Origin: a virus
Taxonomy: Duplodnaviria; Caudoviricetes
Virus record (IMG/VR): IMGVR_UViG_3300048858_000099
Span: 5,373-69,372 of that record
Length of the DNA stretch: 64,000 nt
Reading direction: 5' to 3' (one strand)
In this document: positions 1 through 50,770 of the stretch, one piece after another
Position numbering within the stretch: position 1 is the stretch's first letter
Layout: every line of letters starts with the position of its first letter
The notes under the pieces: model-generated
The model's input: only the letters and a program-made list of their open reading frames with translations
Database searches by the model: none
What the model was told of the DNA's origin: nothing
Translations under genes and position numbers: made by a program

Positions 1-2188
1 TACCCAGCACGAGACCCATGTCGATGTTCAGCGCCCCGACGGGGTGCCTCGTGGTGTCGGTCAGTTGCCACGCCTTGCCGCCGTCGACATAGAACTCGAT
101 GGCGCTGGGAGTCCAGACGACGGCGTAGGAGTGGGGGACCGTTAGGTCAAGGCTGACCTGAGAGCTTGTGACGTTGTTGCTCGGATCGCGGACGTAGAAG
201 ATCACCTCGTCTGCCCCGCCGTCGCGGTGACTAAGTAGCCCGATGGCTCCGTCGGCGTAGTTGGCGCTCTTCAGTTCGACGACTGGGCCGTACCCTGGGC
301 CACGGTCGAGCTTGGCCTTGATCTCCCAGCGTCCGTACTTCTGCGCGTTGCCGTTTGCTCGCAACCCACCAACGAACGACCCGCTGCCGAGGATAGTGAG
401 GAACCCCTCAGACTGGATCGCTGCGGTTCCCCCAGAGACGGCAGGAGTTGTGAGCACAGAGTTTCTGATGATGTGCTCGACCATGGGCCGCCACACCGTG
501 CCCGCGGGCGGCTCGGGCCCGAAGGAAGAAGGCGGCGGAATCCCGTCGCCCCCGACGTTGTACGGGCCGTCTGACTCACCGGGCACCTTGCACCAGATAT
601 GCCCATGGCGTCGAGCTACGCCGTCCAATCCGTTCGGGCTATAGCGACTTCGCTCACCAAGCGCGATGCCCGTTGGGTTCTGCCAGTCCTGCGGGTTGGG
701 CGGGTTCTGTGCACCGTTGCGCGAGGTGTCGATGATGTAGCCAAGCTTGCCCTTCGGCACGCCGTACTGACTCTCCAGGATGTCGATGGTGCCGTTGGCG
801 TGCACCTCGCAGTCTGCCGTGGGTCGAAAGTTGGAGATGTTCTCGTTGATGCCATCGCACAGTTCGACGCCAGCCTTGGACAGCACGAAGGCCATGTCAC
901 TGGGGCCGAGCCATTGACTGTGACCGTTGTCGTGGTAGATCCGAGCGTTGATGCACTTTGCACGGATGCGCTTCACGCACTCCTTGAGCAGATACATGCG
1001 CTGGTCGAACTCGGCCTGAGTGATCTTGCCGCCGCGCAGCTCGCCGAGCACCTGCGGCAGGGCATCGGGCTCCAGGGCAATGACCGCGTATTGCTCGCCG
1101 ATGGCAGCGCACTGCTCGTCTACCCACTGCAGGTACTGAGCACTGTTCTGCGCGCCACCGCTGGCTGCTCCTCCGAAGTCGCGACCCAGGATGCTGTAGA
1201 AGATGAAGACGTTGTACTGACCGGCAGCCTTCGCTGCAGCCACGGCATTCGCCGTGACGTTCGAGCCAAGCGGCACCCACTCGATCCCGAGCCACTTGGC
1301 GCCGGCCGTGCCGACGATGTAGTCGATGCCCTTGAGGATCGCCTGGTCGCTGTAGTTGCTGCGGATGGTCCCGATCGTGTTCGCGGGATCTGCCCAGAGG
1401 TGCCAGCCTTCCGTGACCGGGGCAGCCGAGCCGCCTGGGTCGCCGTTGTTGTACACCGTCCAGCGCTGCCCGCTCGGGGTGGTGCCCTCCGTGAAGTCGT
1501 CGTAGTCGAGAAGCGTGTAGCCCGCGGGGGTGGTGGGAGTTGTCGAGCTTCCGCCGCCGCTCGATCCGCCTGTGTTGCCAGTGTCGTTTGACCCACCGAG
1601 CGTGACGTTGTTGTCGTAGGTCGAACGACTGGCGTGAGGAGTCCCGAGCCATGAGTACGTCTTACCCGGCACAGTGGCCGTGGCGGCGATGTCAGGGGTA
1701 TCACCGTCGAAGTAGGGCGTGGCGTTGCCCGCCGTGAACGCGAGGTTCGTAAACCAGCACGTTCCGGTCGAGGTCGCCCCGTAGGAGCCCAGGCCGAAGA
1801 TGACCTCGACGGTGGTGCGCTCCGAGACCGTGACGTTGACACCCTCGAAGGTCCAGGGCCGACTGGCGCCGTAGTGGCGCTGTGCGAGGACCTGGTACGC
1901 AGCGGTTCGGACGACGATGTGAGCGTTCGTGACGAGTTCGTTTGTCTGGTACTGGTACTGCAGGTAGTACGTGCCAGGGTCGAGCGTGACCGACATGATG
2001 CGGGCGCCAGCGTCACCACTCTGGCCCTCATGGAAGAAGAACTTGAACGCCGAGGTTCCGTTCGGGCCGTCTGTGGCCTTCTGCTCCAACTTGAAGTTGG
2101 GCGTGGTGGCGTTGCCTCCATACGTGGGTATGGAGGCAAGAGAGCCCTTAGCCCTGGGGTTCTCGACGTATTGCGTAGTGAGAGTCAA
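1..2188 (-). CDS. Tail-module multidomain glycosidase, 3'-truncated by the window edge: N-terminal beta-rich/CBM-like region, Gly/Ser/Thr linker, GH16-like (ConA) domain interrupted by a complete GH6 domain
   Basis: Not in the ORF track. Translated by hand from TTG at 2188 with no stop to position 2. GH6 motifs: GRDFGG, IALEPDALPQ (1052-1081), YHDNGHSQWL, NISNF, YIIDTSRNG (713-739), IWCKVPGESDG (566-598). GH16-like flanks: YTLLDYDDF..RW, YGRWEIKAKL, HSYAVVWTPSAIEFYVDG. Confidence 0.85.
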   Translation of the reverse strand, partial: MTLTTQYVENPRAKGSLASIPTYGGNATTPNFKLEQKATDGPNGTSAFKFFFHEGQSGDAGARIMSVTLDPGTYYLQYQYQTNELVTNAHIVVRTAAYQVLAQRHYGASRPWTFEGVNVTVSERTTVEVIFGLGSYGATSTGTCWFTNLAFTAGNATPYFDGDTPDIAATATVPGKTYSWLGTPHASRSTYDNNVTLGGSNDTGNTGGSSGGGSSTTPTTPAGYTLLDYDDFTEGTTPSGQRWTVYNNGDPGGSAAPVTEGWHLWADPANTIGTIRSNYSDQAILKGIDYIVGTAGAKWLGIEWVPLGSNVTANAVAAAKAAGQYNVFIFYSILGRDFGGAASGGAQNSAQYLQWVDEQCAAIGEQYAVIALEPDALPQVLGELRGGKITQAEFDQRMYLLKECVKRIRAKCINARIYHDNGHSQWLGPSDMAFVLSKAGVELCDGINENISNFRPTADCEVHANGTIDILESQYGVPKGKLGYIIDTSRNGAQNPPNPQDWQNPTGIALGERSRYSPNGLDGVARRHGHIWCKVPGESDGPYNVGGDGIPPPSSFGPEPPAGTVWRPMVEHIIRNSVLTTPAVSGGTAAIQSEGFLTILGSGSFVGGLRANGNAQKYGRWEIKAKLDRGPGYGPVVELKSANYADGAIGLLSHRDGGADEVIFYVRDPSNNVTSSQVSLDLTVPHSYAVVWTPSAIEFYVDGGKAWQLTDTTRHPVGALNIDMGLVLG

Positions 2189-2613: not shown

Positions 2614-3753
2614 CTAGCTAGGTTGGACAGAGACGGACATGGAGCCCGCCTTGACGAGGGGTGCGACACCCGCGAGTACGACGTCTACGACGGGGGATGA
2701 GCCCGCGATGCGCTTGACGACCTGATCGACTCGCTTCACGCCGGGCACCTGGTCAAGGAGCGACACAAGCTCGTTGTGGTAGACCCCCTCCTCGAAGTCC
2801 CAGGTAGCTGGATCGAGGTAGGCGCGGAGTGCGGCGCTGGCCGATGCTGCAACAACGTCGACGTCGAAGCCCGCCTGGGCGATGAGGCGGGCGTCTACGT
2901 CGACCGTCGTGTACGTCGGGGCGATAGTCCGCACGACGAAGTTCACCTCGCGCTGGTCCTCGAGGTAGGCCGCAACCTCCGCGGACACAGAGGCAGGGAC
3001 CGGATTACCGAGCTGGTCGGCTAGGGCCACAGCCACCATGCGCTCGTTGTCGTAGGTGCCGTTCACGGGGTTGTAGCCGTCGATCGCGACGGCCCGGTCG
3101 ACACCGCTGATCCGGCGAGCGAGGACGGCGAAGTCTTGGGGATGGATGGGGCGAGGCGTCATCAGTCGCAGCTCTTGGCGCAGGCGGTCGAGGTATGCCG
3201 AGCTTGTCTCGGCATCGACACCGCCAGAGGTGGTCCCCGTAGTCACGACGCTGCGCACGAACGACAATGCGTCGGCCAGTTGGATGGCCGTCGGAGGGAT
3301 GCCGTTGTAGGCCGCACCGGGCGCGACAGCACGCAGCACCACTTCCCCCAAAGAGGTGGCGGTCTTGCCCGGTGCGATGGTGACCTGATCGACGACGCGA
3401 AAGAAGGCTTGCCGATCCGATGCGAGTTGGTAGCCGACGAGAGTGCCAGCAGGGATGGTGTGCCCCAGGTCGTCGTAGGCGGTCCACGTACTGTTGACCT
3501 GGGCCGACGCTGCGGCTGTAGAGGGGATGCCGTGAAGCGACTGGCCGGCGTAGCGGAAGATGTCAGCAGGCACCCGAGAGGCGACGTCGCGGTTCTCGGC
3601 AACCAGGCGCGCGAGGACTTCGATCATGGCGACTTCGAGGTGGCCCTCCTGGGGCACGAAGCCGTCAATGCGCTGGGCAAGATCGTCAAGAGCAGATGCG
3701 GCCAGATCGTCCGGGTCGGTTGAGAGCGGGATAGTGATGTACTCGTCGGCCAT
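2614..3753 (-). CDS. Baseplate J/gp47-like wedge protein
   Basis: 379 aa; GGVDAETSSAYLDRL and G..YN motifs; position after the gp25-like gene. Confidence 0.9.
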   Translation of the reverse strand: MADEYITIPLSTDPDDLAASALDDLAQRIDGFVPQEGHLEVAMIEVLARLVAENRDVASRVPADIFRYAGQSLHGIPSTAAASAQVNSTWTAYDDLGHTIPAGTLVGYQLASDRQAFFRVVDQVTIAPGKTATSLGEVVLRAVAPGAAYNGIPPTAIQLADALSFVRSVVTTGTTSGGVDAETSSAYLDRLRQELRLMTPRPIHPQDFAVLARRISGVDRAVAIDGYNPVNGTYDNERMVAVALADQLGNPVPASVSAEVAAYLEDQREVNFVVRTIAPTYTTVDVDARLIAQAGFDVDVVAASASAALRAYLDPATWDFEEGVYHNELVSLLDQVPGVKRVDQVVKRIAGSSPVVDVVLAGVAPLVKAGSMSVSVQPS

Positions 3754-4250
3754 CAGATCGAGTTCCAGGTCGCATCGCCCAACTGGTTCCAGGTGATCGA
3801 GCCCAGGGTGCTCCAGGTCGCGGGGGTGGTGGGGTCCGGCGTACCGGGATCAACCGGCGTGGTTGGGTCGGTCGGGGTCACCACCGCAGTGGACGTTGCC
3901 ATCGCATCGAGCACGCCGTAGTTCACGACCTCGGCCTTAGCCTTGACGAGCACCGTCAAGTTGCGCTGGCTGTCGTCACTGGGGCTCACGCGACTCGTCA
4001 CTTCGATCTCTGCCCGAGGCTCCCACGCTTCGATCTGAGCGGCGATGACGTCCCCAGCAGCGCTGCGGTCCGTCGTGAACGTCAGGTCGGGGATACCGAA
4101 GCCAGGTACCTCTGCCCGTTGCCCGACACGCGTCTTGACTATCGCCTCGACGCACTTCCCGATGTCTGTCAACGAGTTCTGTTCCACGACAACTGCGGCG
4201 CCAAAAGCACCGATCTGAAACGGGACGCGGAAGTGAGGGATGACTGCCAT
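3753..4250 (-). CDS. GPW/gp25-like baseplate wedge protein with a Pro/Thr-rich, TWxxL-repeat C-terminal extension
   Basis: PHFRVPF..G, TRVGQRAEVPGFG, IEAWEPRA motifs. Start reassigned to ATG at 4250. Confidence 0.8.
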   Translation of the reverse strand: MAVIPHFRVPFQIGAFGAAVVVEQNSLTDIGKCVEAIVKTRVGQRAEVPGFGIPDLTFTTDRSAAGDVIAAQIEAWEPRAEIEVTSRVSPSDDSQRNLTVLVKAKAEVVNYGVLDAMATSTAVVTPTDPTTPVDPGTPDPTTPATWSTLGSITWNQLGDATWNSI

Positions 4251-4255
4251 CTGCC

Positions 4256-4540
4256 CTACGAGCTTACGTCCCAGGCCACGATCCAAGGGCGATCCAGGCC
4301 ACTGCCCGCAAACATGACCAGGCACACGCTGCCCGGCTGTGGAGGCTGGTAGGCATCGCCGTAGCGGGCAGGACCGAAGAGCTTGGTCTCATCCCAGTCT
4401 GGTACGACGAACAAGGCGCGGTGCGCATCCTCGTCGACGGTGTGGATGACCCCTTCGATGCATGCGGGGACCTGCCAGTTTTGCGGTTGTGGCGAGGGCA
4501 GCGGCGAGAACATCGTTTCGAGGTTCGGTCGGTTCCTCAC
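4256..4540 (-). CDS. Small baseplate spike-like (gpV-type OB-fold) protein
   Basis: PQPGSVCLVMFAGSGLDRPWIV resembles the gpV/Vgr OB motif; synteny. Confidence 0.6.
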   Translation of the reverse strand: MRNRPNLETMFSPLPSPQPQNWQVPACIEGVIHTVDEDAHRALFVVPDWDETKLFGPARYGDAYQPPQPGSVCLVMFAGSGLDRPWIVAWDVSS

Positions 4541-6057
4541 ACCTTCTCCGTCCCGGCCATGACCTTCACCGGATCGACGGGGACGGACCCCGAGCCGGTT
4601 CCGCGACGGATCTCCCAGTGGAGGTGCACCCCTGTCGAGTTACCCGTGGTCCCGGCATAGCCGATGACCTGGCCCTTCTTGACGACCACCCCACGCTGGA
4701 CGATGTAGCGGTTGAGGTGGGCATAGCGAGACTCGTTTTGCTTGGCCGGCGGTGCCGACCCATTTGCGTAGGGTCCCGCTGGGGGCAGATCAGTGTGGGT
4801 GATCCGAATGACATTGCCGTAGCCTCCATCGTTGCCGACAAATGACACGACACCATCACGGGACGCCAGAACTTCCCGATTGAGTTCGACGGCGATATCC
4901 ACACCAGTGTGCGGTTTCACGATACCCGAGACGGGGTTCTTGCGAGCAGGGCTAAAACCATCGCTGATGCTATAACTGCCGTGGACTGGCCAAGACCAAG
5001 TGGCGTTGCTAGCGGCACCCGCCCCCGTGCCGGTTACGGCGCCGGTGAACTCCTGAACAAGTTTGGCGATCTGACCGAAGTAGCCATCGTCGATCCCTGT
5101 CTCGGCTTTCTCCTCGTTTGAGGTCGGCTCGGGAAGTTCAGGCATAGGAACTTGGAGGACGATCTGCGTCTCGGCCTCGAATAGGTCACGCGTCGACTCA
5201 GCGATGAACCACTTGCCGTTGGCAGGGCCGAGGTCATATAGCTCGACACAGGTACCCGGTGCCGCTGCGAAGCGTTCGGTTGCGGTGGTGTAGTCGGCGT
5301 TGCCCATTGGCTGGCCTACGTCCCAGTCGAAGTTGACGTAAGAGGTCAGTGACGGAAGCCCATCGGTGATGCGGAACGCGGGATCGCCGGCCGTGTAGGC
5401 GCTCATCGGCCCGACGTTGAGTACGCCGTCATCGACGTAGCAGTTCCAGTTGATCTCGGAGAACCAGCGCTTGATAGCGGTCCAGGTGTCCTCTCGGTTC
5501 TCGTCGGAAACTTCCATCCGGGCGCCTGTGCCCACATCGGCGGTATCTCCAGAACCGCTAAAGTATTCTAGGTCAATGGTGTCTGTTTCAGCGTCCTTGG
5601 GGACCGTGGTCAGGTTGCCGCGCGCCAGCTCCACCTGGATCGGCTGCTGAGTGTTGGCCCCGACCGCCATCCTGATCCACCCGATCTCGTCAAGGAGGGC
5701 CTGCGCTGCCTGGATGCGTGTGACCGAGCCGGATGCGAACTTGCGCGGCTCATCGTGGCGGCGCATCTCAGCCACGGCAAGGTCCTCAAAGGTCAGTTCG
5801 AGGTCATTGTCGTTCTTGCGGTGGGCGCATAGTTCGAACGACCGTCCGTCGAGCTGGGCGGTGATGCGCGAGTTGAGGAGGTTGGAGCGCAGCAGAGTTC
5901 GGTGGGGGTCGTGCACGGTGACGAGGAGGTTAGACACCCCGTCGGTTGTGCGCTTGAGGGATGCTTCAACAATGAAGGGCGCGAGTTCCGCCTTGAGCCC
6001 TTCTGACCCATCAATCTGAAGGCTGGACAGAAAGACATTCCTGAGGTCTTCGCTCAT
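4537..6057 (-). CDS. Baseplate hub (gpD-like) fused to a C-terminal M23 peptidase
   Basis: M23 motifs HTGVD, GGYGNVI, YAHL, STGVHLHWE. Start reassigned to ATG at 6057. Confidence 0.85.
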   Translation of the reverse strand: MSEDLRNVFLSSLQIDGSEGLKAELAPFIVEASLKRTTDGVSNLLVTVHDPHRTLLRSNLLNSRITAQLDGRSFELCAHRKNDNDLELTFEDLAVAEMRRHDEPRKFASGSVTRIQAAQALLDEIGWIRMAVGANTQQPIQVELARGNLTTVPKDAETDTIDLEYFSGSGDTADVGTGARMEVSDENREDTWTAIKRWFSEINWNCYVDDGVLNVGPMSAYTAGDPAFRITDGLPSLTSYVNFDWDVGQPMGNADYTTATERFAAAPGTCVELYDLGPANGKWFIAESTRDLFEAETQIVLQVPMPELPEPTSNEEKAETGIDDGYFGQIAKLVQEFTGAVTGTGAGAASNATWSWPVHGSYSISDGFSPARKNPVSGIVKPHTGVDIAVELNREVLASRDGVVSFVGNDGGYGNVIRITHTDLPPAGPYANGSAPPAKQNESRYAHLNRYIVQRGVVVKKGQVIGYAGTTGNSTGVHLHWEIRRGTGSGSVPVDPVKVMAGTEKV

Positions 6058-6719
6058 GGCAGTTTGAGCACCTGTCCGACCTTGAGCGTGCGTGGGTCGC
6101 GGATGCCGTTCAGGTTCGCCAGCTCTTGCCATCGGTTGGCGTTGCCGAGCTGGCTGGCGGCGATCCGCGAGAGCGTGTCGCCCGACTTCGCCGTGTACGT
6201 CTTGCCCGGCACGGCCGCCCCTGTCCCGGTGCTGACCTGTGCAGATTCAGCCCGCGCAGCAGCAGCAGCAGCTGGCGACTTCTGCTGCACGATGATCTCG
6301 GCCGGCACGTACTCCAGGAAGTTCAGGGTCAGTGCCTGACGGCTACGGCGTCCGTCCGATCGCCGCTGGCACTCACCCGAGTCATCAACCGATTCAAGAA
6401 CCCACACCAGGTCGGCGTGAGACATCGCGGGGCCAACGAGCTTCAGCAGGTCGGGCTCACTGCGGTCTTCGGGGCGGTGCATCCGGTCCTCGACAAGTCG
6501 GATCAGTTCTTCCACGTCGCCATCGGGCCAGGCGTCGAAGATGATCGAGAGCTTGCACGTCCACGGCTCCTCGCCCGTGAAGGTGGTGAAGCTCTTCCGG
6601 CGTGGGCGGCTGATTCGGTCCCACGTGGCAGAGCCGCCCGAGTAGCGAGGTGGGTCACCGCCCAGCGGGAGACCGACGACGGGCTGACCGCTGGAGAGCA
6701 TCATGGTGATGGTGGTCAT
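6054..6719 (-). CDS. Tail tube initiator-like protein with C-terminal LysM domain
   Basis: YTAKSGDTLSRIAASQLGNANRWQELANLNGIRDPRTLKVGQVLKLP is a LysM domain; ATG at 6719 overlaps the tape measure stop. Confidence 0.85.
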   Translation of the reverse strand: MTTITMMLSSGQPVVGLPLGGDPPRYSGGSATWDRISRPRRKSFTTFTGEEPWTCKLSIIFDAWPDGDVEELIRLVEDRMHRPEDRSEPDLLKLVGPAMSHADLVWVLESVDDSGECQRRSDGRRSRQALTLNFLEYVPAEIIVQQKSPAAAAAARAESAQVSTGTGAAVPGKTYTAKSGDTLSRIAASQLGNANRWQELANLNGIRDPRTLKVGQVLKLP

Positions 6720-8584
6720 CGACGGGCCAACTCTGCCTTGAGCCCGTTGACCACGAGCTTGGCGAGCTTGCGGTTGTCGGCACTGTCGGCGCCGCTGATG
6801 ACGACGGAACCAGGCTGGAAGACAACGCCACCCATTCCGCTCGGGGACACGGTGTCGTTGTCGAGGGGGCGCACGGTGGCCCCAGCGGGGAGCGTGAGCC
6901 ACTCGCGCCCGCGCTCACCAACCTGGACCGTGCCTGGGCGCGTCACATGCCCGCCGAAGGCGAGGCCGGGTCCCTGAGGTCGCACCGGAGAAGTCAGAGA
7001 CGAACCGAACGGGAACGTGTTGTTGCGAGCCTGCGGCATGGGTGAGGACGACCCGTAGGGACCGTCGTCGGGGAGCAGCTTGCCTATGAGACTGCCGGCC
7101 CCGCCCAGGATCTTGCTCGGCAGGCTCACGATCTTGGCGTAGACGCCATAGAGGTCGGTGAGGTAGGCGATGCTCGCTTGCAAAACGACTGTCAGGATTT
7201 TGAAGGTTGTAAGGATCGAGCTGCCGTGGTCGTTGAGGAACGAGTAGCCCTTGGTAGCGATCTCCGTCGCCGTACTGAGGAGGTCGAACACGAGCGGGAG
7301 TGCCTGCACCATGAATGGGATCGCCACTCCTGTCAGGTAGCTGCGAAAGACAGGGAGGGCCGACTTGACGCTCTCCCAGAGCCGCACGAGCGTCCCGCCT
7401 GCGCCCAGCTTGTTGTCGAGCTGGTTGAAAACCAGATCGAGGCCGCCCTTGTCGAACGCCATGATCAGCTCACGCACGTGCGGGGCAATGTCACCGATCT
7501 TGCGACCAACCCAATCGAGCGCTTTGCCCGCGCCCTTGGTCAGGAGCGGTATGCCCTTGCTCAGCTCGTCGGTCAGGGGCCGAAAAATCTTTGCCGACTC
7601 AATCCAAATCGTGTCCTTGAGGTTGGACAGCTGCCCAAGAAAAGTTCTGGATTGCTTGTCCATCGCGCCCTTGAACTGCGGGTCATTGGCGAGACCCCGA
7701 AGAACAACGTCTGCGGCTTGGCTACCCGAGATCCTTCCGGCTTCGGCATCCTTCATGACCTTGCCTTGCGAGCGACCAGAGGCGTCAGCTAGGTAGCTCC
7801 AGGCGTCAATGCCCCGCTCGGCGAGCTGGGTGTTGATCTCCTCCGCACTGAGCGTGCCTTTGGTACGCATCTGCTGAAGGGCAAGGACGATGCTGGTGAG
7901 CCCGTCGGAGTCGAGGTTGAGGGCACTGGAGGCGTTGCCGATCGCTTCCAGGGTGGGAAGCACGTCGTCCTTCTTCGTGCCCGTACCCATGAGGAACTGC
8001 GCTTGGGCTGCTACCTGCTGGGTGTCGAACGGGGTGTTGCGCGCGAACTCGTTGACCTGGCCAAGGAACTCGGTCCCAACCTGGTCACTCCCGAGGATGG
8101 TGCTGAATCCGATCTGACGCTGCTCCATCGTGCCTGCGGCCTTGAGCCCATAGGTGACGAAGGCCGCGGTTCCAGCCGCTGTAACTGCCGTCACGGCAGC
8201 TATGGCTCGAGCCAGGCCGGTCGCCACGCCGATAGCTGCCGACATTCGGCTACTCATGATGCTCAGCGAACTTGACGAGCTTCGCGTGCCGAGGTTCAGG
8301 CCGTTCTGCGCGGCGCGGGCTCGACGCAGCTCCGCAGTCAGACGGTTCACGCGCAGTTCCATGCGACGGACGGCTGCCTCAGCCTGACGCATCGCGTTGG
8401 TGTAGCCAATCGTCCCTTGCCGTGCATGGTTCAGTGCCCGACCAAGCGCCTCGACGTGCCGCGCGGCGAGCTGCGCCGAGAGGCCGATGCGGCGGATGGA
8501 CTCGGAGACGCGGGTGGCGTCCTGACGGAACTGTGACGCGCCGCGCAGACTGAGCTTGAGTTTGATTTCGTCGTCAGTTGCCAC
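6716..8584 (-). CDS. Tape measure protein
   Basis: 622 aa, Ala/Gly-rich; tape-measure domain signature (FARNTPF, KGTLSAEEINTQLAERGI); position after the chaperones. Confidence 0.9.
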   Translation of the reverse strand: MATDDEIKLKLSLRGASQFRQDATRVSESIRRIGLSAQLAARHVEALGRALNHARQGTIGYTNAMRQAEAAVRRMELRVNRLTAELRRARAAQNGLNLGTRSSSSSLSIMSSRMSAAIGVATGLARAIAAVTAVTAAGTAAFVTYGLKAAGTMEQRQIGFSTILGSDQVGTEFLGQVNEFARNTPFDTQQVAAQAQFLMGTGTKKDDVLPTLEAIGNASSALNLDSDGLTSIVLALQQMRTKGTLSAEEINTQLAERGIDAWSYLADASGRSQGKVMKDAEAGRISGSQAADVVLRGLANDPQFKGAMDKQSRTFLGQLSNLKDTIWIESAKIFRPLTDELSKGIPLLTKGAGKALDWVGRKIGDIAPHVRELIMAFDKGGLDLVFNQLDNKLGAGGTLVRLWESVKSALPVFRSYLTGVAIPFMVQALPLVFDLLSTATEIATKGYSFLNDHGSSILTTFKILTVVLQASIAYLTDLYGVYAKIVSLPSKILGGAGSLIGKLLPDDGPYGSSSPMPQARNNTFPFGSSLTSPVRPQGPGLAFGGHVTRPGTVQVGERGREWLTLPAGATVRPLDNDTVSPSGMGGVVFQPGSVVISGADSADNRKLAKLVVNGLKAELARR

Positions 8585-9736: not shown

Positions 9737-11182
9737 CTAGAAGCTCTGACTGATCGCCGTCTTGACGATCTGGATTTCCACGTACTCAGCCGTCGGGCTC
9801 ATGCGTACCCCGATGACCGCATGCAGCTCACCGTTCTCGATGGTCTGCGGCGTGTTCACGGAGTTGCTGACGTCCACGTAGAAGGCTTCGCCTGGAGTGT
9901 CGCCGTAGAGCGCGCGAGCGTTGTAGTGGCGCGTGAGCATGCCGGTCAGTGCGCCAGCGAACTCAGCCAACTTCTGGCCCTTGCCGTCAATCTGCTGGAA
10001 CAGGAACGACTCGGCGATGGCCTCCGCGTCGGAAACGATGACCATCCGTAGGCGCTGGTTCGTGAGCTGCCCCCAGGTGGGGTCGGTCGCCCGAGCGAGA
10101 GTGCGGTTGGCGTACAGCGTTACTACGCCGTCGAACGCGCGAAGAAGGTTGAGCCCGGCTGTGTTGAGACTGTCGCGCTCTGCATCGGTGTACGGGGCTT
10201 GTGTAAGCCCGAGCGCGTACTTGGCGCGACCCTGGGTGCCGGCCGCGGCTTCGTTGGGCGATCGGGTGGCGTCCGAGCGAGCCAAGAGGCCGGCAGCGAG
10301 AGCCGACGGGGGGACGACGCGGACAGCGCCGGCGAGCTGTGGGTTCGGAACGGTGATCCACGGCCCGAAGAGCGCACCGTACTCGTCACCCTGCAGGCCC
10401 TGGGCCTCACTGACCAGGACCGAAGCGGATGAGGTGTCAACGACGTCGAGAAGGGCCTGCCGATTGAAGGCGCGGGCGTGCGCGATGAGCGAGGCGCGAG
10501 TGTTGGGTGTCGTTGATCCTGGCACTGACACCTGACCGGGACCGAAGTCGGTCGTGAACTTCGTCAGCCCAGCGGCACGCACGGTGTCGCTGACTGCTCC
10601 GTAATCGTCAGTGCCACCAGTCAGGGCAGTTGCCGCGACGACCTTGGGGTTGAGTGAAGAGGCGTCAGACGGGAGGGTGAGCTTCACCCACCGTTCGTCG
10701 TCGTTCGCCCACGCGATGGCATCGGCTTGACTGGCGAGGCTTGGGGAACGGTCGACGACCCCCCGCGCAGCGTGGGTGACGACGATGACGAACTGACCCG
10801 AGGTTGCGCCCGCTTGCACCGCTACGGAGAGTTGGCCACCCCAGGCGCCCGCATCCCGAGCGGCCACCCGTAGCGAGTTGCCGTCGCTTGCGTCGGTCAG
10901 GGTCAGCCCAGCAGTCGTGGCACTCGGCCCAGCGACACGCTGGACGACAGCGGTATTCCCGCCCTCACGGAAGAAGGTGTCGAGCGAATCGAAGAGGAGC
11001 GACTGAGTGATGCGCGTCCCGAAGTAGCGATCGAACTCTGTCATGTTGCGGATGGTCTGAGGCTTGTCGAGAGGCCCACGCTCGGCGGCACCAACGACGA
11101 ACCATACGCCCGTCAGTGATGCACCAGAGCGCGCAGTAGGGCTGGTGCGAGTGGTGACGGCGGTGCCTGGACGGTACGGCAT
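9737..11182 (-). CDS. Contractile tail sheath protein
   Basis: G..ERGP, FFREGG..A.V.RV, VPPS, LN..G.N, FQQID, PTAEYV motifs. Confidence 0.95.
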   Translation of the reverse strand: MPYRPGTAVTTRTSPTARSGASLTGVWFVVGAAERGPLDKPQTIRNMTEFDRYFGTRITQSLLFDSLDTFFREGGNTAVVQRVAGPSATTAGLTLTDASDGNSLRVAARDAGAWGGQLSVAVQAGATSGQFVIVVTHAARGVVDRSPSLASQADAIAWANDDERWVKLTLPSDASSLNPKVVAATALTGGTDDYGAVSDTVRAAGLTKFTTDFGPGQVSVPGSTTPNTRASLIAHARAFNRQALLDVVDTSSASVLVSEAQGLQGDEYGALFGPWITVPNPQLAGAVRVVPPSALAAGLLARSDATRSPNEAAAGTQGRAKYALGLTQAPYTDAERDSLNTAGLNLLRAFDGVVTLYANRTLARATDPTWGQLTNQRLRMVIVSDAEAIAESFLFQQIDGKGQKLAEFAGALTGMLTRHYNARALYGDTPGEAFYVDVSNSVNTPQTIENGELHAVIGVRMSPTAEYVEIQIVKTAISQSF

Positions 11183-47057: not shown

Positions 47058-47164
47058 GCATGGATTCTGTACGACGTATGTGACTGCACTGACCGATTCG
47101 TGCGGACATCACCCAGGCGGAACAGGGGGTGTCACTAGTTGTGGCACCCCACTACGCGAAGTAG

Positions 47165-47239
47165 CTCCGAGGGTGAGACTCGAACTCACCTCCATCACGG
47201 TTAACAGCCGCGTGCGCTCACCTGGAGTGCTACCTCGGA
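47165..47239 (-). tRNA. trnN: tRNA-Asn(GTT)
   Basis: Acceptor TCCGAGG/CCTCGGA, anticodon loop CTGTTAA, T-loop TTCGAGT; no encoded CCA. Confidence 0.9.
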
Positions 47240-47243
47240 AGGG

Positions 47244-47316
47244 TGCGCAAGGAGAGGGTTGAACTCCCGACTTCCGGTTCCGTAGACCGGCGCTCTATCC
47301 ACTGAGCTACTTGCGC
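47244..47316 (-). tRNA. trnR: tRNA-Arg(ACG)
   Basis: Acceptor GCGCAAG/CTTGCGC, anticodon stem CCGGT/ACCGG with loop CTACGGA, T-loop TTCAACC. Confidence 0.9.
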
Positions 47317-47317
47317 T

Positions 47318-47394
47318 TGGTGCGTCAGGGCGGAGTCGAACCGCCGACCGTGGGCTTAAGAGGCCCCTGCTCTAACCAACTGAGCTACTGACGC
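47318..47394 (-). tRNA. trnK: tRNA-Lys(CTT)
   Basis: Acceptor GCGTCAG/CTGACGC, loop CTCTTAA, encoded CCA. Confidence 0.92.
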
Positions 47395-47398
47395 AGAG

Positions 47399-47469
47399 CA
47401 CGCGCGAGAGGTGTCGAACCCCTGTTCCCGGGTTTGGAAGCCGGTGTCTTGCCGTTAGACGACGCGCGC
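47399..47469 (-). tRNA. trnW: tRNA-Trp(CCA)
   Basis: Stem CCGGC/CCCGG (C-C mismatch) around loop TTCCAAA; G73 discriminator. The Gly(TCC) register pairs poorly. Confidence 0.75.
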
Positions 47470-47816: not shown

Positions 47817-48902
47817 ATGAACAGATCCGAAGTCCAGTCCAAACTACTCAGCCTGGGTGGCGAGAAGACCGACGCGTTCACCAACTCCGTGTTCGGTCTC
47901 GGCATCAACGATGCAGACACAGCCGAACAACTCCTGCTGATGGCCACCGTGCTCTCCGACAAGGGGTACGTGGGACCGAACTACCTCAGGACGGTGAAGG
48001 AGTGGGCCGCGTCACTGAAGGCGCCAGTGCCCACCCCGGCAACTCCTGCACCGTCAAAGGCCGTTGAGCCCACGCTGTACGCCGCCAGCAACCAAGCACT
48101 CGACCACGGTCACCAGCGTCTCGGGACCACGCCGCAAGGCGTCTGGGTCAACGGCTGGGGCGACATGGACCGGGCGCGTGAAGTCGCCCAGAAGGCCAAG
48201 GCCGCGGGTCAGGTGCCCCACCTTGTCGCGTACTACGCCGAGAACCGAGACAACGGTCAGTACAGCGCAGGAGGAGCCGCTAGTTCGCAGGACTACCGCA
48301 ACTGGGGCCGTGCTCTCGCAGACGCCATCCGGGGGTCGAACGCCATCGTGGTCCTGGAGCCCGATGCACTCACGCTCTACAACGGCACCCCTTCGACCCG
48401 GTACGCGGATCTGGGCTACGTCGGCAAGCTGCTCCTCGAAGCAGGCGCGAAGGTGTTCCTGTCGGCCGGCCACAGCCGATGGCTACCGGCCGACGAGGTT
48501 GCGAACCGTGGTCGCCAGGTGGGCTTCGGGAACTTCACGGGCTTCAGCTTCAACGACTCGAACTACCGCCCCCTGGCCGAGCAGGTCGTGTTCGCCGAGC
48601 AGGTGTGGGCGATGACGAACAAGGCCTACGTCATCGACACCTCGCGCAACGGGGCGGGCAAGGCGCCGCTCATCGAGGACGGGAGCGAGCGAGCGTGGTG
48701 CAACCAGCCCAGCCGGACGTTCGGCGAGCTGCCGACGCTCAAGCCGTCTCAGGGGGAGCACTGCTACGCCTATCTCTGGACGAAGCACGCTGGCGAGAGC
48801 GACGGGGCATGGAACCCATACAAGGGCGATCACAGTGCACCTGGGGCCGGTCAGTGGTTTGAGGAGTACGTGCAGGAGATGGAGCGGAACTCAGGCTGGT
48901 GA
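47817..48902 (+). CDS. Glycoside hydrolase family 6 (endoglucanase-like) with N-terminal helical domain and Pro/Thr linker
   Basis: ENRDNGQYSAGG, VVLEPDAL, SAGHSRWL, NDSNY, YVIDTSRNG, WCN, WTKHAGESDG; no obvious signal peptide. Confidence 0.92.
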   Translation: MNRSEVQSKLLSLGGEKTDAFTNSVFGLGINDADTAEQLLLMATVLSDKGYVGPNYLRTVKEWAASLKAPVPTPATPAPSKAVEPTLYAASNQALDHGHQRLGTTPQGVWVNGWGDMDRAREVAQKAKAAGQVPHLVAYYAENRDNGQYSAGGAASSQDYRNWGRALADAIRGSNAIVVLEPDALTLYNGTPSTRYADLGYVGKLLLEAGAKVFLSAGHSRWLPADEVANRGRQVGFGNFTGFSFNDSNYRPLAEQVVFAEQVWAMTNKAYVIDTSRNGAGKAPLIEDGSERAWCNQPSRTFGELPTLKPSQGEHCYAYLWTKHAGESDGAWNPYKGDHSAPGAGQWFEEYVQEMERNSGW

Positions 48903-50166: not shown

Positions 50167-50508
50167 TTACTGTCCGGTGGCTTCCTGGAACTTGACGAGA
50201 AGGTCGTTGCTGAGGCGTCCACGGTCGGAAACCTCGATGCCTTCCTTCTTCGCCCACTCCCGGACGGCCGTCGTGTCGACCTTGGAGCTCGGGGCCGCGG
50301 CAGCCTTCTTGGCCGGGCCACGACGTGCGCCGCCGCCAACGCGGCGACCAGCCTCAAGGTAGGGAGCAAGGGCCTCGCGGAGCTGCTTCGCGTGCTCGTC
50401 GTTGAGGTCAAGCTCGTAGGTCACGCCATCCAGCCCGAGCGAGACGGTCTCTTGCGCCTCGGAGCCGTCGAGGTCATCAACGAGGGTGATCTGCGTGCGG
50501 GAAGCCAT
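50167..50508 (-). CDS. lsr2: Lsr2 nucleoid-associated protein
   Basis: LVDDLDG..A.ETV..GLDGVTYELDL..LREALAPY..VREWA..GIEVSDRGRL. Confidence 0.95.
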   Translation of the reverse strand: MASRTQITLVDDLDGSEAQETVSLGLDGVTYELDLNDEHAKQLREALAPYLEAGRRVGGGARRGPAKKAAAAPSSKVDTTAVREWAKKEGIEVSDRGRLSNDLLVKFQEATGQ

Positions 50509-50770
50509 GACGGGATCATCCCATGGCGCAGCTACGTGATCTGGTCCTCACGCACCGAGAGAGCATGGATCTGGTCAAGGGCATCACGCCGGTCCTGAGA
50601 CTCGGCCTTGGCGATGCGGTGGTAGCGGACGATGGAGTGCAAGAGCCACGCGGTGCCGGTCTCCTGCCCAAGCACCCATGCTCGCGCGCCCGGCTCCCCG
50701 AGTAGGAGCATCAACGACCTGACGTGGATCTCTAGTGCGTCGTCCTGGTCGAGGTCGAAAGACCCACCCA

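Follow-up and report, generated by a model that had tools for sequence, protein, structure and literature searches.

A GH6 Domain Apparently Nested in a Decayed GH16 Fold on a Probable Baseplate Protein of an Actinobacterial Phage

Introduction

Tail-borne depolymerases of phages are well known, and to our knowledge nearly all of the studied ones target Gram-negative capsules or O-antigens. Here we analyze P0002, a 1482-amino acid (aa) protein whose N-terminal part is encoded at the left end of a 64,000-nucleotide stretch of viral DNA (the window). The stretch comprises bases 5373-69372 of IMGVR_UViG_3300048858_000099, a 69,372-base IMG/VR provirus record with an estimated completeness of 73%. 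The domain order of P0002 is a sandwich resembling carbohydrate-binding module (CBM) families 4 and 22, a jelly roll of glycoside hydrolase (GH) family 16 that is split by a GH6 domain, a GH8 domain, short repeats, and a C-terminal domain of the gpI type. On balance, we regard the frame in the window as the N-terminal half of a baseplate wedge protein from a temperate, contractile-tailed phage of actinobacteria.

Phage-encoded beta-1,4-glucanases have been described in Erwinia amylovora phage S6, for which host cellulose is the first receptor (PMC9544554). Its gp094 (GH48) and gp095 (GH5) are likewise a pair from different families that is thought to be virion-associated and to cut the host exopolysaccharide used for infection, which resembles the role proposed here (PMC9544554). 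However, S6 is an N4-like phage of a Gram-negative host and makes GH5 and GH48 as two separate proteins, whereas P0002 unites GH6 and GH8 in one gpI-type protein. Moreover, the S6 glucanases have not been placed in the virion, and they contain neither a nested domain nor a dead GH16 (PMC9544554). Our search of the literature yielded no report of a phage tail with GH6 or GH8.

Each part of P0002 has better-characterized counterparts. The C-terminal 208 aa are homologous to P2 gpI and Mu gp48-type proteins, and the gene comes after a gpJ homologue as it does in P2; typical Tail_P2_I proteins consist of ~200 aa alone, while in P0002 an enzyme arm of 1270 aa precedes this part. Thermobifida fusca Cel6A (E2, 1tml) and Mycobacterium tuberculosis CelA1 (1up0) share the GH6 fold and the conserved Asp residues of P0002. 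Both are secreted and are free-standing or linked to a CBM2, whereas the GH6 of P0002 sits inside another fold and, as predicted from sequence, on the virion. A precedent among our fold matches for one glycosidase within another is GluXyn-1 (1axk), an engineered hybrid in which a xylanase domain lies within the jelly roll of a Bacillus GH16 glucanase; both of its parts are active. P0002 differs from GluXyn-1 in that the insertion is natural, the guest is a GH6, and the GH16 host fold is without catalytic residues.

GH6 proteins have also been connected to phages and to bacterial surface polymers. Among 50,697 phage records, the only isolated phage with a GH6-like match is Streptomyces phage Gilgamesh, whose gp72 (MN234216; 30% identity) is annotated as a "glycoside hydrolase" and is encoded at the end of the block of minor tail protein genes. 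It is a separate 444-aa protein with no GH16, GH8, or gpI parts, and no functional study of it was found in the literature. In Streptomyces, the GH6 protein CslZ is encoded beside cslA-glxA and partners the synthase of a surface glucan, tying GH6 to a bacterial surface beta-glycan (PMC9040799). Unlike the phage GH6, CslZ is a host lipoprotein that serves synthesis. Chitin or xylan is the substrate of certain GH6 enzymes (Table 1 in PMC9040799).

Results

An Unbroken Frame Encodes P0002 and Its GH6 Domain.

A first-pass annotation, made from the letters of the window alone, had proposed a tail-module gene without a stop codon in the window, with GH6 motifs at about positions 460 to 1410 and pieces of a GH16-like fold on both sides. 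Translation bore this out. The minus-strand frame 2..2188 encodes 729 aa and reaches the left edge of the window without a stop; all of the quoted motifs (YTLLDYDDF..RW, RD, EPD, HSQWL, DTSRNG, W.K.PGESDG, YGRWEIKAKL, GAIGLLS, and HSYAVVWTPSAIEFYVDG) are read in it, a pattern that is not due to chance. When the frame was extended leftwards into the IMG/VR record, it continued for a further 2.26 kb to give an unbroken reading frame of 1482 codons and to add a GH8 domain and a predicted baseplate anchor. The proposed GH6 span agrees with the one found here (Table 1).

The GH6 domain is complete and of endoglucanase size. Pfam Glyco_hydro_6 (PF01341) matched residues 289-544 of the 729-aa frame (window positions ~494-1426) at E = 2.7e-32 and 113 bits (cut-off, 27) and the complete 1482-aa protein at 1e-31 and 111 bits. 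The nearest solved sequences are bacterial GH6 endoglucanases, namely 6fao (1.8e-34), M. tuberculosis CelA1 (6e-29), and T. fusca E2 (1tml; 7.8e-29). An AlphaFold2 (AF2) model of the domain had a predicted local distance difference test (pLDDT) score of >90, and a VIA fold search aligned 280 of 286 residues with 1tml (Z 36.7, root-mean-square deviation 2.0 A, ~29% identity in the structural alignment), which identifies the distorted alpha/beta barrel of GH6. The domain has the size of endoglucanase E2 and is without the extra loops of the exo-enzyme Cel6B.

The set of GH6 Asp residues is also complete, with D337 (RD), D375 (EPD; the acid), D420 (DNGH, in the DxGH motif), and D540 (GESDG), all four of which are invariant or nearly so in an alignment of 46 sequences. 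Catalytic and substrate-binding motifs are kept in homologues down to 36% identity. One departure from Cel6A and CelA1 is that the Cys of their RDC motif is Phe in P0002.

The GH6 Domain Is Inserted in a GH16 Fold.

Only two other clusters cover the whole nested module. They were found among 2002 matches in a profile-free search with residues 215-765 against 1.84 billion representative proteins. One contains the Kineococcus vitellinus T13 protein (P0003/P0153, WP_166613718), which is from an isolate genome, is 65-70% identical, and has the same domain order with an extra GH8 after the N-terminal domain. The other is P0004, a 1732-aa metagenomic protein of 36% identity, in which the N-terminal domain of P0002 is joined to the nested module and a GH8, with a further, intact GH16 (EIDLFE) between the N-terminal domain and the module. 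At the C-terminus, P0004 resembles not gpI but Dit, the distal tail protein of siphoviruses.

Pfam Glyco_hydro_16 (PF00722) matched residues 612-725 of P0002 at 26.1 bits (26.2 bits in the full protein; cut-off, 22) over profile positions 36-155 of 175. Because the Pfam model is without the first two strands, with matches starting at profile positions 19-36, it is unable to test nesting. A more specific GH16 profile was built from 113 contiguous actinobacterial GH16 proteins and the contiguous GH16 domain of P0004. With this profile, the match is broken at position 40/48 into two colinear pieces in all three homologues. The K. vitellinus pieces cover profile positions 6-40 (9.4 bits, independent E value 9e-5) and 48-221, and those of P0004 cover positions 4-40 (8.5 bits, 1.6e-4) and 52-221. 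In P0002, the C-terminal piece covers positions 49-222 at residues 589-759 (97 bits, 1.4e-31).

In silico deletion of residues 257-577 restored a single continuous GH16 match over positions 8-222 with 110.4 bits, compared with 103.7 bits for the C-terminal part alone. This score was reached by none of 200 chimeras with shuffled N-terminal pieces (mean 103.3, maximum 108.0) and by none of 200 with random 42-aa segments of the same protein (maximum 105.0). The fold search gave a similar picture. With the AF2 model of residues 215-765 as the query, VIA listed after the GH6 structures ~30 GH16 structures (Z 11-13), each aligned over 155-175 residues. These alignments run from model residues 1-12 to 541-551 and thus include both flanks, while circularly permuted or truncated GH16 entries align with model residues 395-546 only.

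Three results weigh against the nesting. The N-terminal piece of P0002 itself (profile positions 9-36 at residues 220-248) scored -3.3 bits and was not significant, its pairwise comparison with the contiguous GH16 of P0004 was not significant either (z 1.2-1.5), and the pLDDT of the GH16 flanks is poor, from <50 to 75. It is chiefly the homologues and the chimera test, not local model accuracy, that give confidence in the nesting. Taken together, the split profile matches, the deletion chimera, and the fold search support insertion of GH6 into the GH16 fold after the strands that carry LLDYDDF...RW..Y. The nested arrangement of the first-pass annotation thus held up, with both families above their Pfam cut-offs and, in spite of the low pLDDT, solved GH16 structures spanning the two flanks.

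The same annotation had called the GH16 part catalytically dead, and alignment of the active-site motif agrees. GAIGLLS of P0002 aligns with GEIDIAE and GEIDIME of GH16 enzymes, so that the catalytic E, D, and E are replaced with A, G, and S and the E-x-D-x-x-E motif is lost. As judged from its motif, this part of P0002 is a GH16-derived fold rather than a GH16 enzyme. The K. vitellinus protein has GAIGLFT, and P0004 has GEIRLFQ, in which the first Glu alone is retained, a series that suggests stepwise decay. A 1261-aa protein of Kocuria sp. (P0008) has a contiguous GH16-like domain with E-I-R-F-F-E, in which Asp is changed to Arg, plus a C-terminal GH6. From the P0008 and P0004 motifs, decay of the GH16 site may have preceded or accompanied the association with GH6.

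The N-Terminal Domain Is Probably a Sugar-Binding Tip.

The N-terminal 196 aa matched no Pfam family, and no PHROGs family was matched by the half of P0002 that lies in the window. This domain is 53% identical in the K. vitellinus protein and 30% identical in P0004. Its AF2 model is a nine-stranded all-beta sandwich of low confidence (pLDDT 56), for which the top VIA matches (Z 12-13, aligned over 132-149 residues) are mostly CBMs, among them CBM4, CBM22, and CBM16, and also include domains of phage fibres. The protein Atlas lead for the domain was CBM_4_9 (0.93). On the strength of these models, the domain is a probable sugar-binding tip.

GH8 and gpI-Type Domains Follow the Nested Module.

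Pfam Glyco_hydro_8 (PF01270) matched residues 839-1145 at 2.4e-16 and 60 bits (cut-off, 24), and the best solved relatives are the chitosanase ChoK (9e-24) and the cellulase CelA (4e-20). E842 in the motif SEG aligns with the acid Glu95 of CelA (Gln in the 1kwf mutant), and the Asp of the ATDGD motif, which starts at residue 905, is conserved. Counting against an active enzyme, the position of the CelA base Asp278 is occupied by Asn (YNAIR), as in ChoK, and the ChoK loop region aligns with a gap, so that no catalytic base is recognizable in the alignment with CelA and ChoK. This ChoK loop, which carries the proposed base of ChoK, Glu309, seems to be missing from P0002. GH8 activity is plausible and not assured.

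Between the GH8 and gpI parts, about five imperfect repeats of 17-20 aa (L.F.D.G......A.L) were recognized by eye at residues 1165-1270 (L003:3751-4068, minus strand, outside the window). Conservation of these repeats in K. vitellinus is poor, and their role may be that of a spacer or stalk.

The match of Pfam Tail_P2_I (PF09684) to residues 1317-1435 is marginal (21.2 bits; cut-off, 20.6). A search with residues 1275-1482, however, found ~50 stand-alone proteins, each about 205 aa long and 33-47% identical, with E values between 1e-14 and 1e-45; many of these carry PF09684 or the name "tail protein P2 I". This homology marks the last 208 residues as a P2 gpI-type module, and what is a small protein in most relatives has here gained an N-terminal arm of 1270 aa. 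One frame joins GH6 and GH8 to this module, and the glycan-cleaving domains are in this way fused to a structural tail protein. In two metagenomic gpI homologues (P0315 and P0318), a CBM_4_9 is inserted within the gpI module instead of being attached at either terminus, which indicates that this baseplate subunit tolerates insertions as well as N-terminal arms.

The Gene Lies in a Contractile-Tail Module.

In the reading direction, the genes encode the sheath, tape measure, LysM protein, M23 protein, gpW, gpJ, Gp80-like protein, P0002, and a collar-domain fibre. The gpI-type C-terminus and the place between gpJ and the collar fibre gene uphold the proposal of a tail-module gene. This position after gpW and gpJ and before the fibre is the one expected, with one small Gp80-like gene intervening. 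Beyond the collar fibre gene are small genes, one of them with a weak holin match, and farther along the record are terminase, Mu-type portal, Mu-like protease, and capsid genes, the presence of which identifies a phage and not a tailocin. By sheath protein, the closest isolated phages are Gordonia and Arthrobacter myoviruses (34% identity). The M23 protein, which has PHROG matches to endolysins and peptidases, seems from its domain content to be a second, peptidoglycan-directed virion enzyme beside the glycan cutters.

The K. vitellinus T13 prophage is syntenic with the record over ~60 kb, including the whole tail module, and the label "Kineococcus-like" for the host is taken solely from this prophage. 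Its gene at the position of the Gp80-like gene is 54% identical. The Gp80-like gene sits between gpJ and the gpI fusion, its family (PF23140) is named after a podophage fibre protein, and its product may be an adaptor for the arm or the fibre. Elsewhere in the window, a minus-strand stretch at ~50176-50532 is 42% identical to a prophage gene of K. vitellinus that Pfam calls Lsr2 (dimerization and DNA-binding domains), and it possibly encodes a phage-borne xenogeneic silencer.

Table 1. Positions of features of P0002, the tail module, and the second GH6 locus
Feature	P0002 residues	Position in window (or as stated)	Strand	Basis
Beta-sandwich, CBM4/CBM22-like, putative carbohydrate-binding tip	1-196	1601..2188	minus	Low-confidence AF2 model, VIA
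Gly/Ser/Thr-rich linker	197-219	1532..1600	minus	Translation
First GH16 jelly-roll strands (LLDYDDF...RW..Y), before the insertion	220-256	1421..1531	minus	GH16 profile, chimera, fold
Complete GH6 domain, endoglucanase-sized, in GH16 loop	257-577	458..1420	minus	Pfam, PDB, AF2, VIA
Remaining GH16 jelly roll, A-I-G-L-L-S replacing E-x-D-x-x-E	578-729 (extends to ~760 outside the window)	2..457	minus	Pfam, own profile
Start codon, TTG		2188	minus	
Gp80-like small tail/fibre protein, 133 aa		2204..2605	minus	Pfam PF23140, 1.6e-24
gpJ-type baseplate wedge subunit		2614..3753	minus	phrog_6, 4.9e-25
gpW/gp25-type baseplate protein		3753..4325	minus	phrog_5026, 7e-9; phrog_43, 5e-5
Tail protein, 531 aa, C-terminal M23 peptidase		4537..6132	minus	Pfam PF01551, 2.3e-24; PHROG matches
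LysM protein		6054-6902	minus	
Tape measure		6716-8584		
Tail sheath		9737-11182		
tRNA cluster (Asn-GTT, Arg-ACG, Lys-CTT, Trp-CCA), just upstream of second GH6		47164-47469	minus	
Second, stand-alone GH6, 361 aa, outside the tail protein		47817..48902	plus	Pfam GH6, 1.1e-33
Prophage GT2 of K. vitellinus (not in this record)		L034:13073-14770 (contig C111, ~78.07-79.77 kb)	minus	Divergent from, and adjoining, second GH6

The Nested Module Is Rare.

In the collection of 50,697 phage records, the only GH6-like match besides Gilgamesh gp72 is in MT836874, a "Bacteriophage sp." contig of 10.5 kb that comes from human faecal samples and is unannotated; this match is also ~30% identical. The same collection contained no DNA match to the window and no protein match to the half of P0002 that comprises GH8 and gpI. 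Related-locus searches of genome, viral, and metagenome contigs with single proteins found nothing, and a search with an alignment as the query found only K. vitellinus and ordinary GH6 genes. Among the remaining long proteins with a GH6, the partner domain is Baseplate_J in P0007, which has GH6 alone of the cassette, and GH8 in P0005 and P0013.

A Second GH6 and Processive Synthases Bear on the Host Glycan.

The window contains a second GH6 gene that is 34% identical to the tail copy and 53% identical to its syntenic counterpart in the K. vitellinus prophage. Its product begins, without a signal peptide, with 70 aa that form an N-terminal domain unrelated to known families, and it also contains a Pro/Thr linker. 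The RD, EPD, and GESDG motifs are retained, and the Asp of DxGH is changed to Ser (LSAGHS). This protein probably shares its substrate with the tail protein.

In the genome of K. vitellinus, the sole GH6 and GH8 matches are the prophage's own, and the two prophage GH6 genes are its only GH6 matches. A search of the same genome with PF03552 (Cellulose_synt) gave no match. Searches for GlxA-type proteins (PF09118 and PF07250) gave none either, a result that carries no weight, as control genomes were equally without a match. K. vitellinus does have two genes of processive glycosyltransferase family 2 (GT2) with the QxxRW motif, both nearest to hyaluronan synthases. The chromosomal one matches these at 1e-22. 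The prophage one encodes a membrane protein with D, DxD, and QQLRW, for which hyaluronan synthases are the nearest solved proteins (2e-14); it is divergent from the second GH6 gene, just as cslZ is from cslA-glxA. By analogy with cslA/cslZ, this neighborhood suggests a pair of synthase and glucanase for a surface polymer specified by the prophage. The present record is without the prophage GT2 gene, and four tRNA genes stand in its place.

The missing PF03552 match and the hyaluronan synthase-like GT2 proteins speak against cellulose as the polymer, to which K. vitellinus thus lends no direct support. The glycan may consequently not be cellulose. By enzyme family, the substrate is expected to be a beta-1,4-linked glycan, which may be cellulose-like, chitin/chitosan-like, or of another kind.

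Discussion

From the architecture of P0002, the protein most likely serves to digest, from the virion, a beta-1,4-linked glycan on the host surface. The gpI module would anchor the protein in the baseplate, where, by analogy with P2- and Mu-type baseplates, about six copies would be placed at the periphery. When a virion meets a cell, the N-terminal CBM-like domain and the decayed GH16 fold would bind the surface polysaccharide, and GH6, and probably GH8 too, would cut its beta-1,4 bonds. The opened layer would then let the fibre and the tail tube, together with the M23 peptidase, through to the wall. By family precedent the glycan would be cellulose-like, although a chitin/chitosan-like polymer is conceivable. 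The proposal that prompted this analysis, a glucanase mounted on the virion with a sugar-binding scaffold of its own, is in line with the predicted domain architecture and the location of the gene; the target suggested there, biofilm cellulose or a CslA-type glucan, is a candidate.

The alternative that deserves most attention accepts the same architecture and virion location and differs in the substrate, which would be chitin/chitosan-like or another beta-1,4- or mixed-linkage polymer made by a GT2 of the hyaluronan/chitin synthase type. Among solved proteins, the chitosanase ChoK is indeed the nearest to the GH8 domain, with which it shares Asn at the position of the base; K. vitellinus is without a PF03552 match; and one of its two hyaluronan synthase-like QxxRW GT2 genes adjoins the second GH6 in the prophage. 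Some GH6 enzymes, moreover, act on chitin or xylan (PMC9040799). Nevertheless, the GH6 family is overwhelmingly one of beta-1,4-glucanases, the nearest solved GH6 relatives are endocellulases, and the prophage GT2 gene is absent from this record; hence, we consider a noncellulose substrate less likely, yet a genuine contender. It is improbable that the target is instead a polysaccharide of the environment or of a foreign matrix, such as plant or biofilm cellulose, which the enzymes would cut to aid movement of the virion through the matrix. Kineococcus-type hosts are dwellers of soil and plant surfaces, and no cellulose synthase was found in K. vitellinus, both of which would suit such a target. 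The six fixed copies predicted in the baseplate, near a fibre and a wall peptidase, are better suited to a cell-surface target, and the retention of a second GH6, in K. vitellinus with a GT2 synthase beside it, points to a polymer made by the cell.

Just as improbable, or slightly more so, is an arm in which GH6 and/or GH8 are nonhydrolyzing binding modules and which serves as a multivalent, lectin-type receptor-binding protein. The clearly dead GH16, the GH8 without a recognizable catalytic base, and the Ser in place of the DxGH Asp in the second GH6 would all fit an arm of this sort. If catalysis were dispensable, however, it should have brought the tail GH6 to a decay like that of GH16, whereas its motifs are invariant across the 46 GH6 sequences and in homologues down to 36% identity. 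That the nesting arose as an artefact of assembly or gene calling, or that a host cellulase gene was captured beside a tail gene, is barely credible. The record is an IMG/VR provirus of 73% estimated completeness, as would be noted in favor of an artefact, but the frame is single and unbroken over its 1482 codons, and the same order recurs in the K. vitellinus T13 isolate and, independently, in a 36% identical protein from a metagenome.

Digestion of a host surface glycan from the virion, our preferred reading, can be taken further. The CBM, the GH6 in a dead GH16, and the GH8 might constitute a portable cassette that actinobacterial phages graft on varied virion anchors, gpI in P0002 and Dit in P0004, and that is matched to a polymer the prophage helps to make, so that the coat of a lysogen would be cut only by kin virions. 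This idea is speculative, and we hold it to be rather unlikely. A parallel for a phage-specified coat is found in the chloroviruses, which encode hyaluronan and chitin synthases.

Within tail-borne depolymerases, three features of P0002 are unusual as predicted from its sequence: the natural insertion of one glycosidase in another, the presence of two glycanase families on one gpI subunit, and the actinobacterial host. A single myovirus baseplate subunit would thereby combine two beta-1,4-glycanase families, a decayed glycosidase that is a probable lectin, and a CBM-like tip. As a rare natural case of a glycosidase within a glycosidase, P0002 may be useful for work on domain insertion and offers a ready-made scaffolded enzyme. 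The occurrence of the cassette on both myovirus and siphovirus anchors points to an exchange of host-range hardware. If the enzymes are active, actinobacteria of the Kineococcus type are predicted to carry a beta-1,4-linked surface polymer, which would be a barrier to phages or their first receptor.

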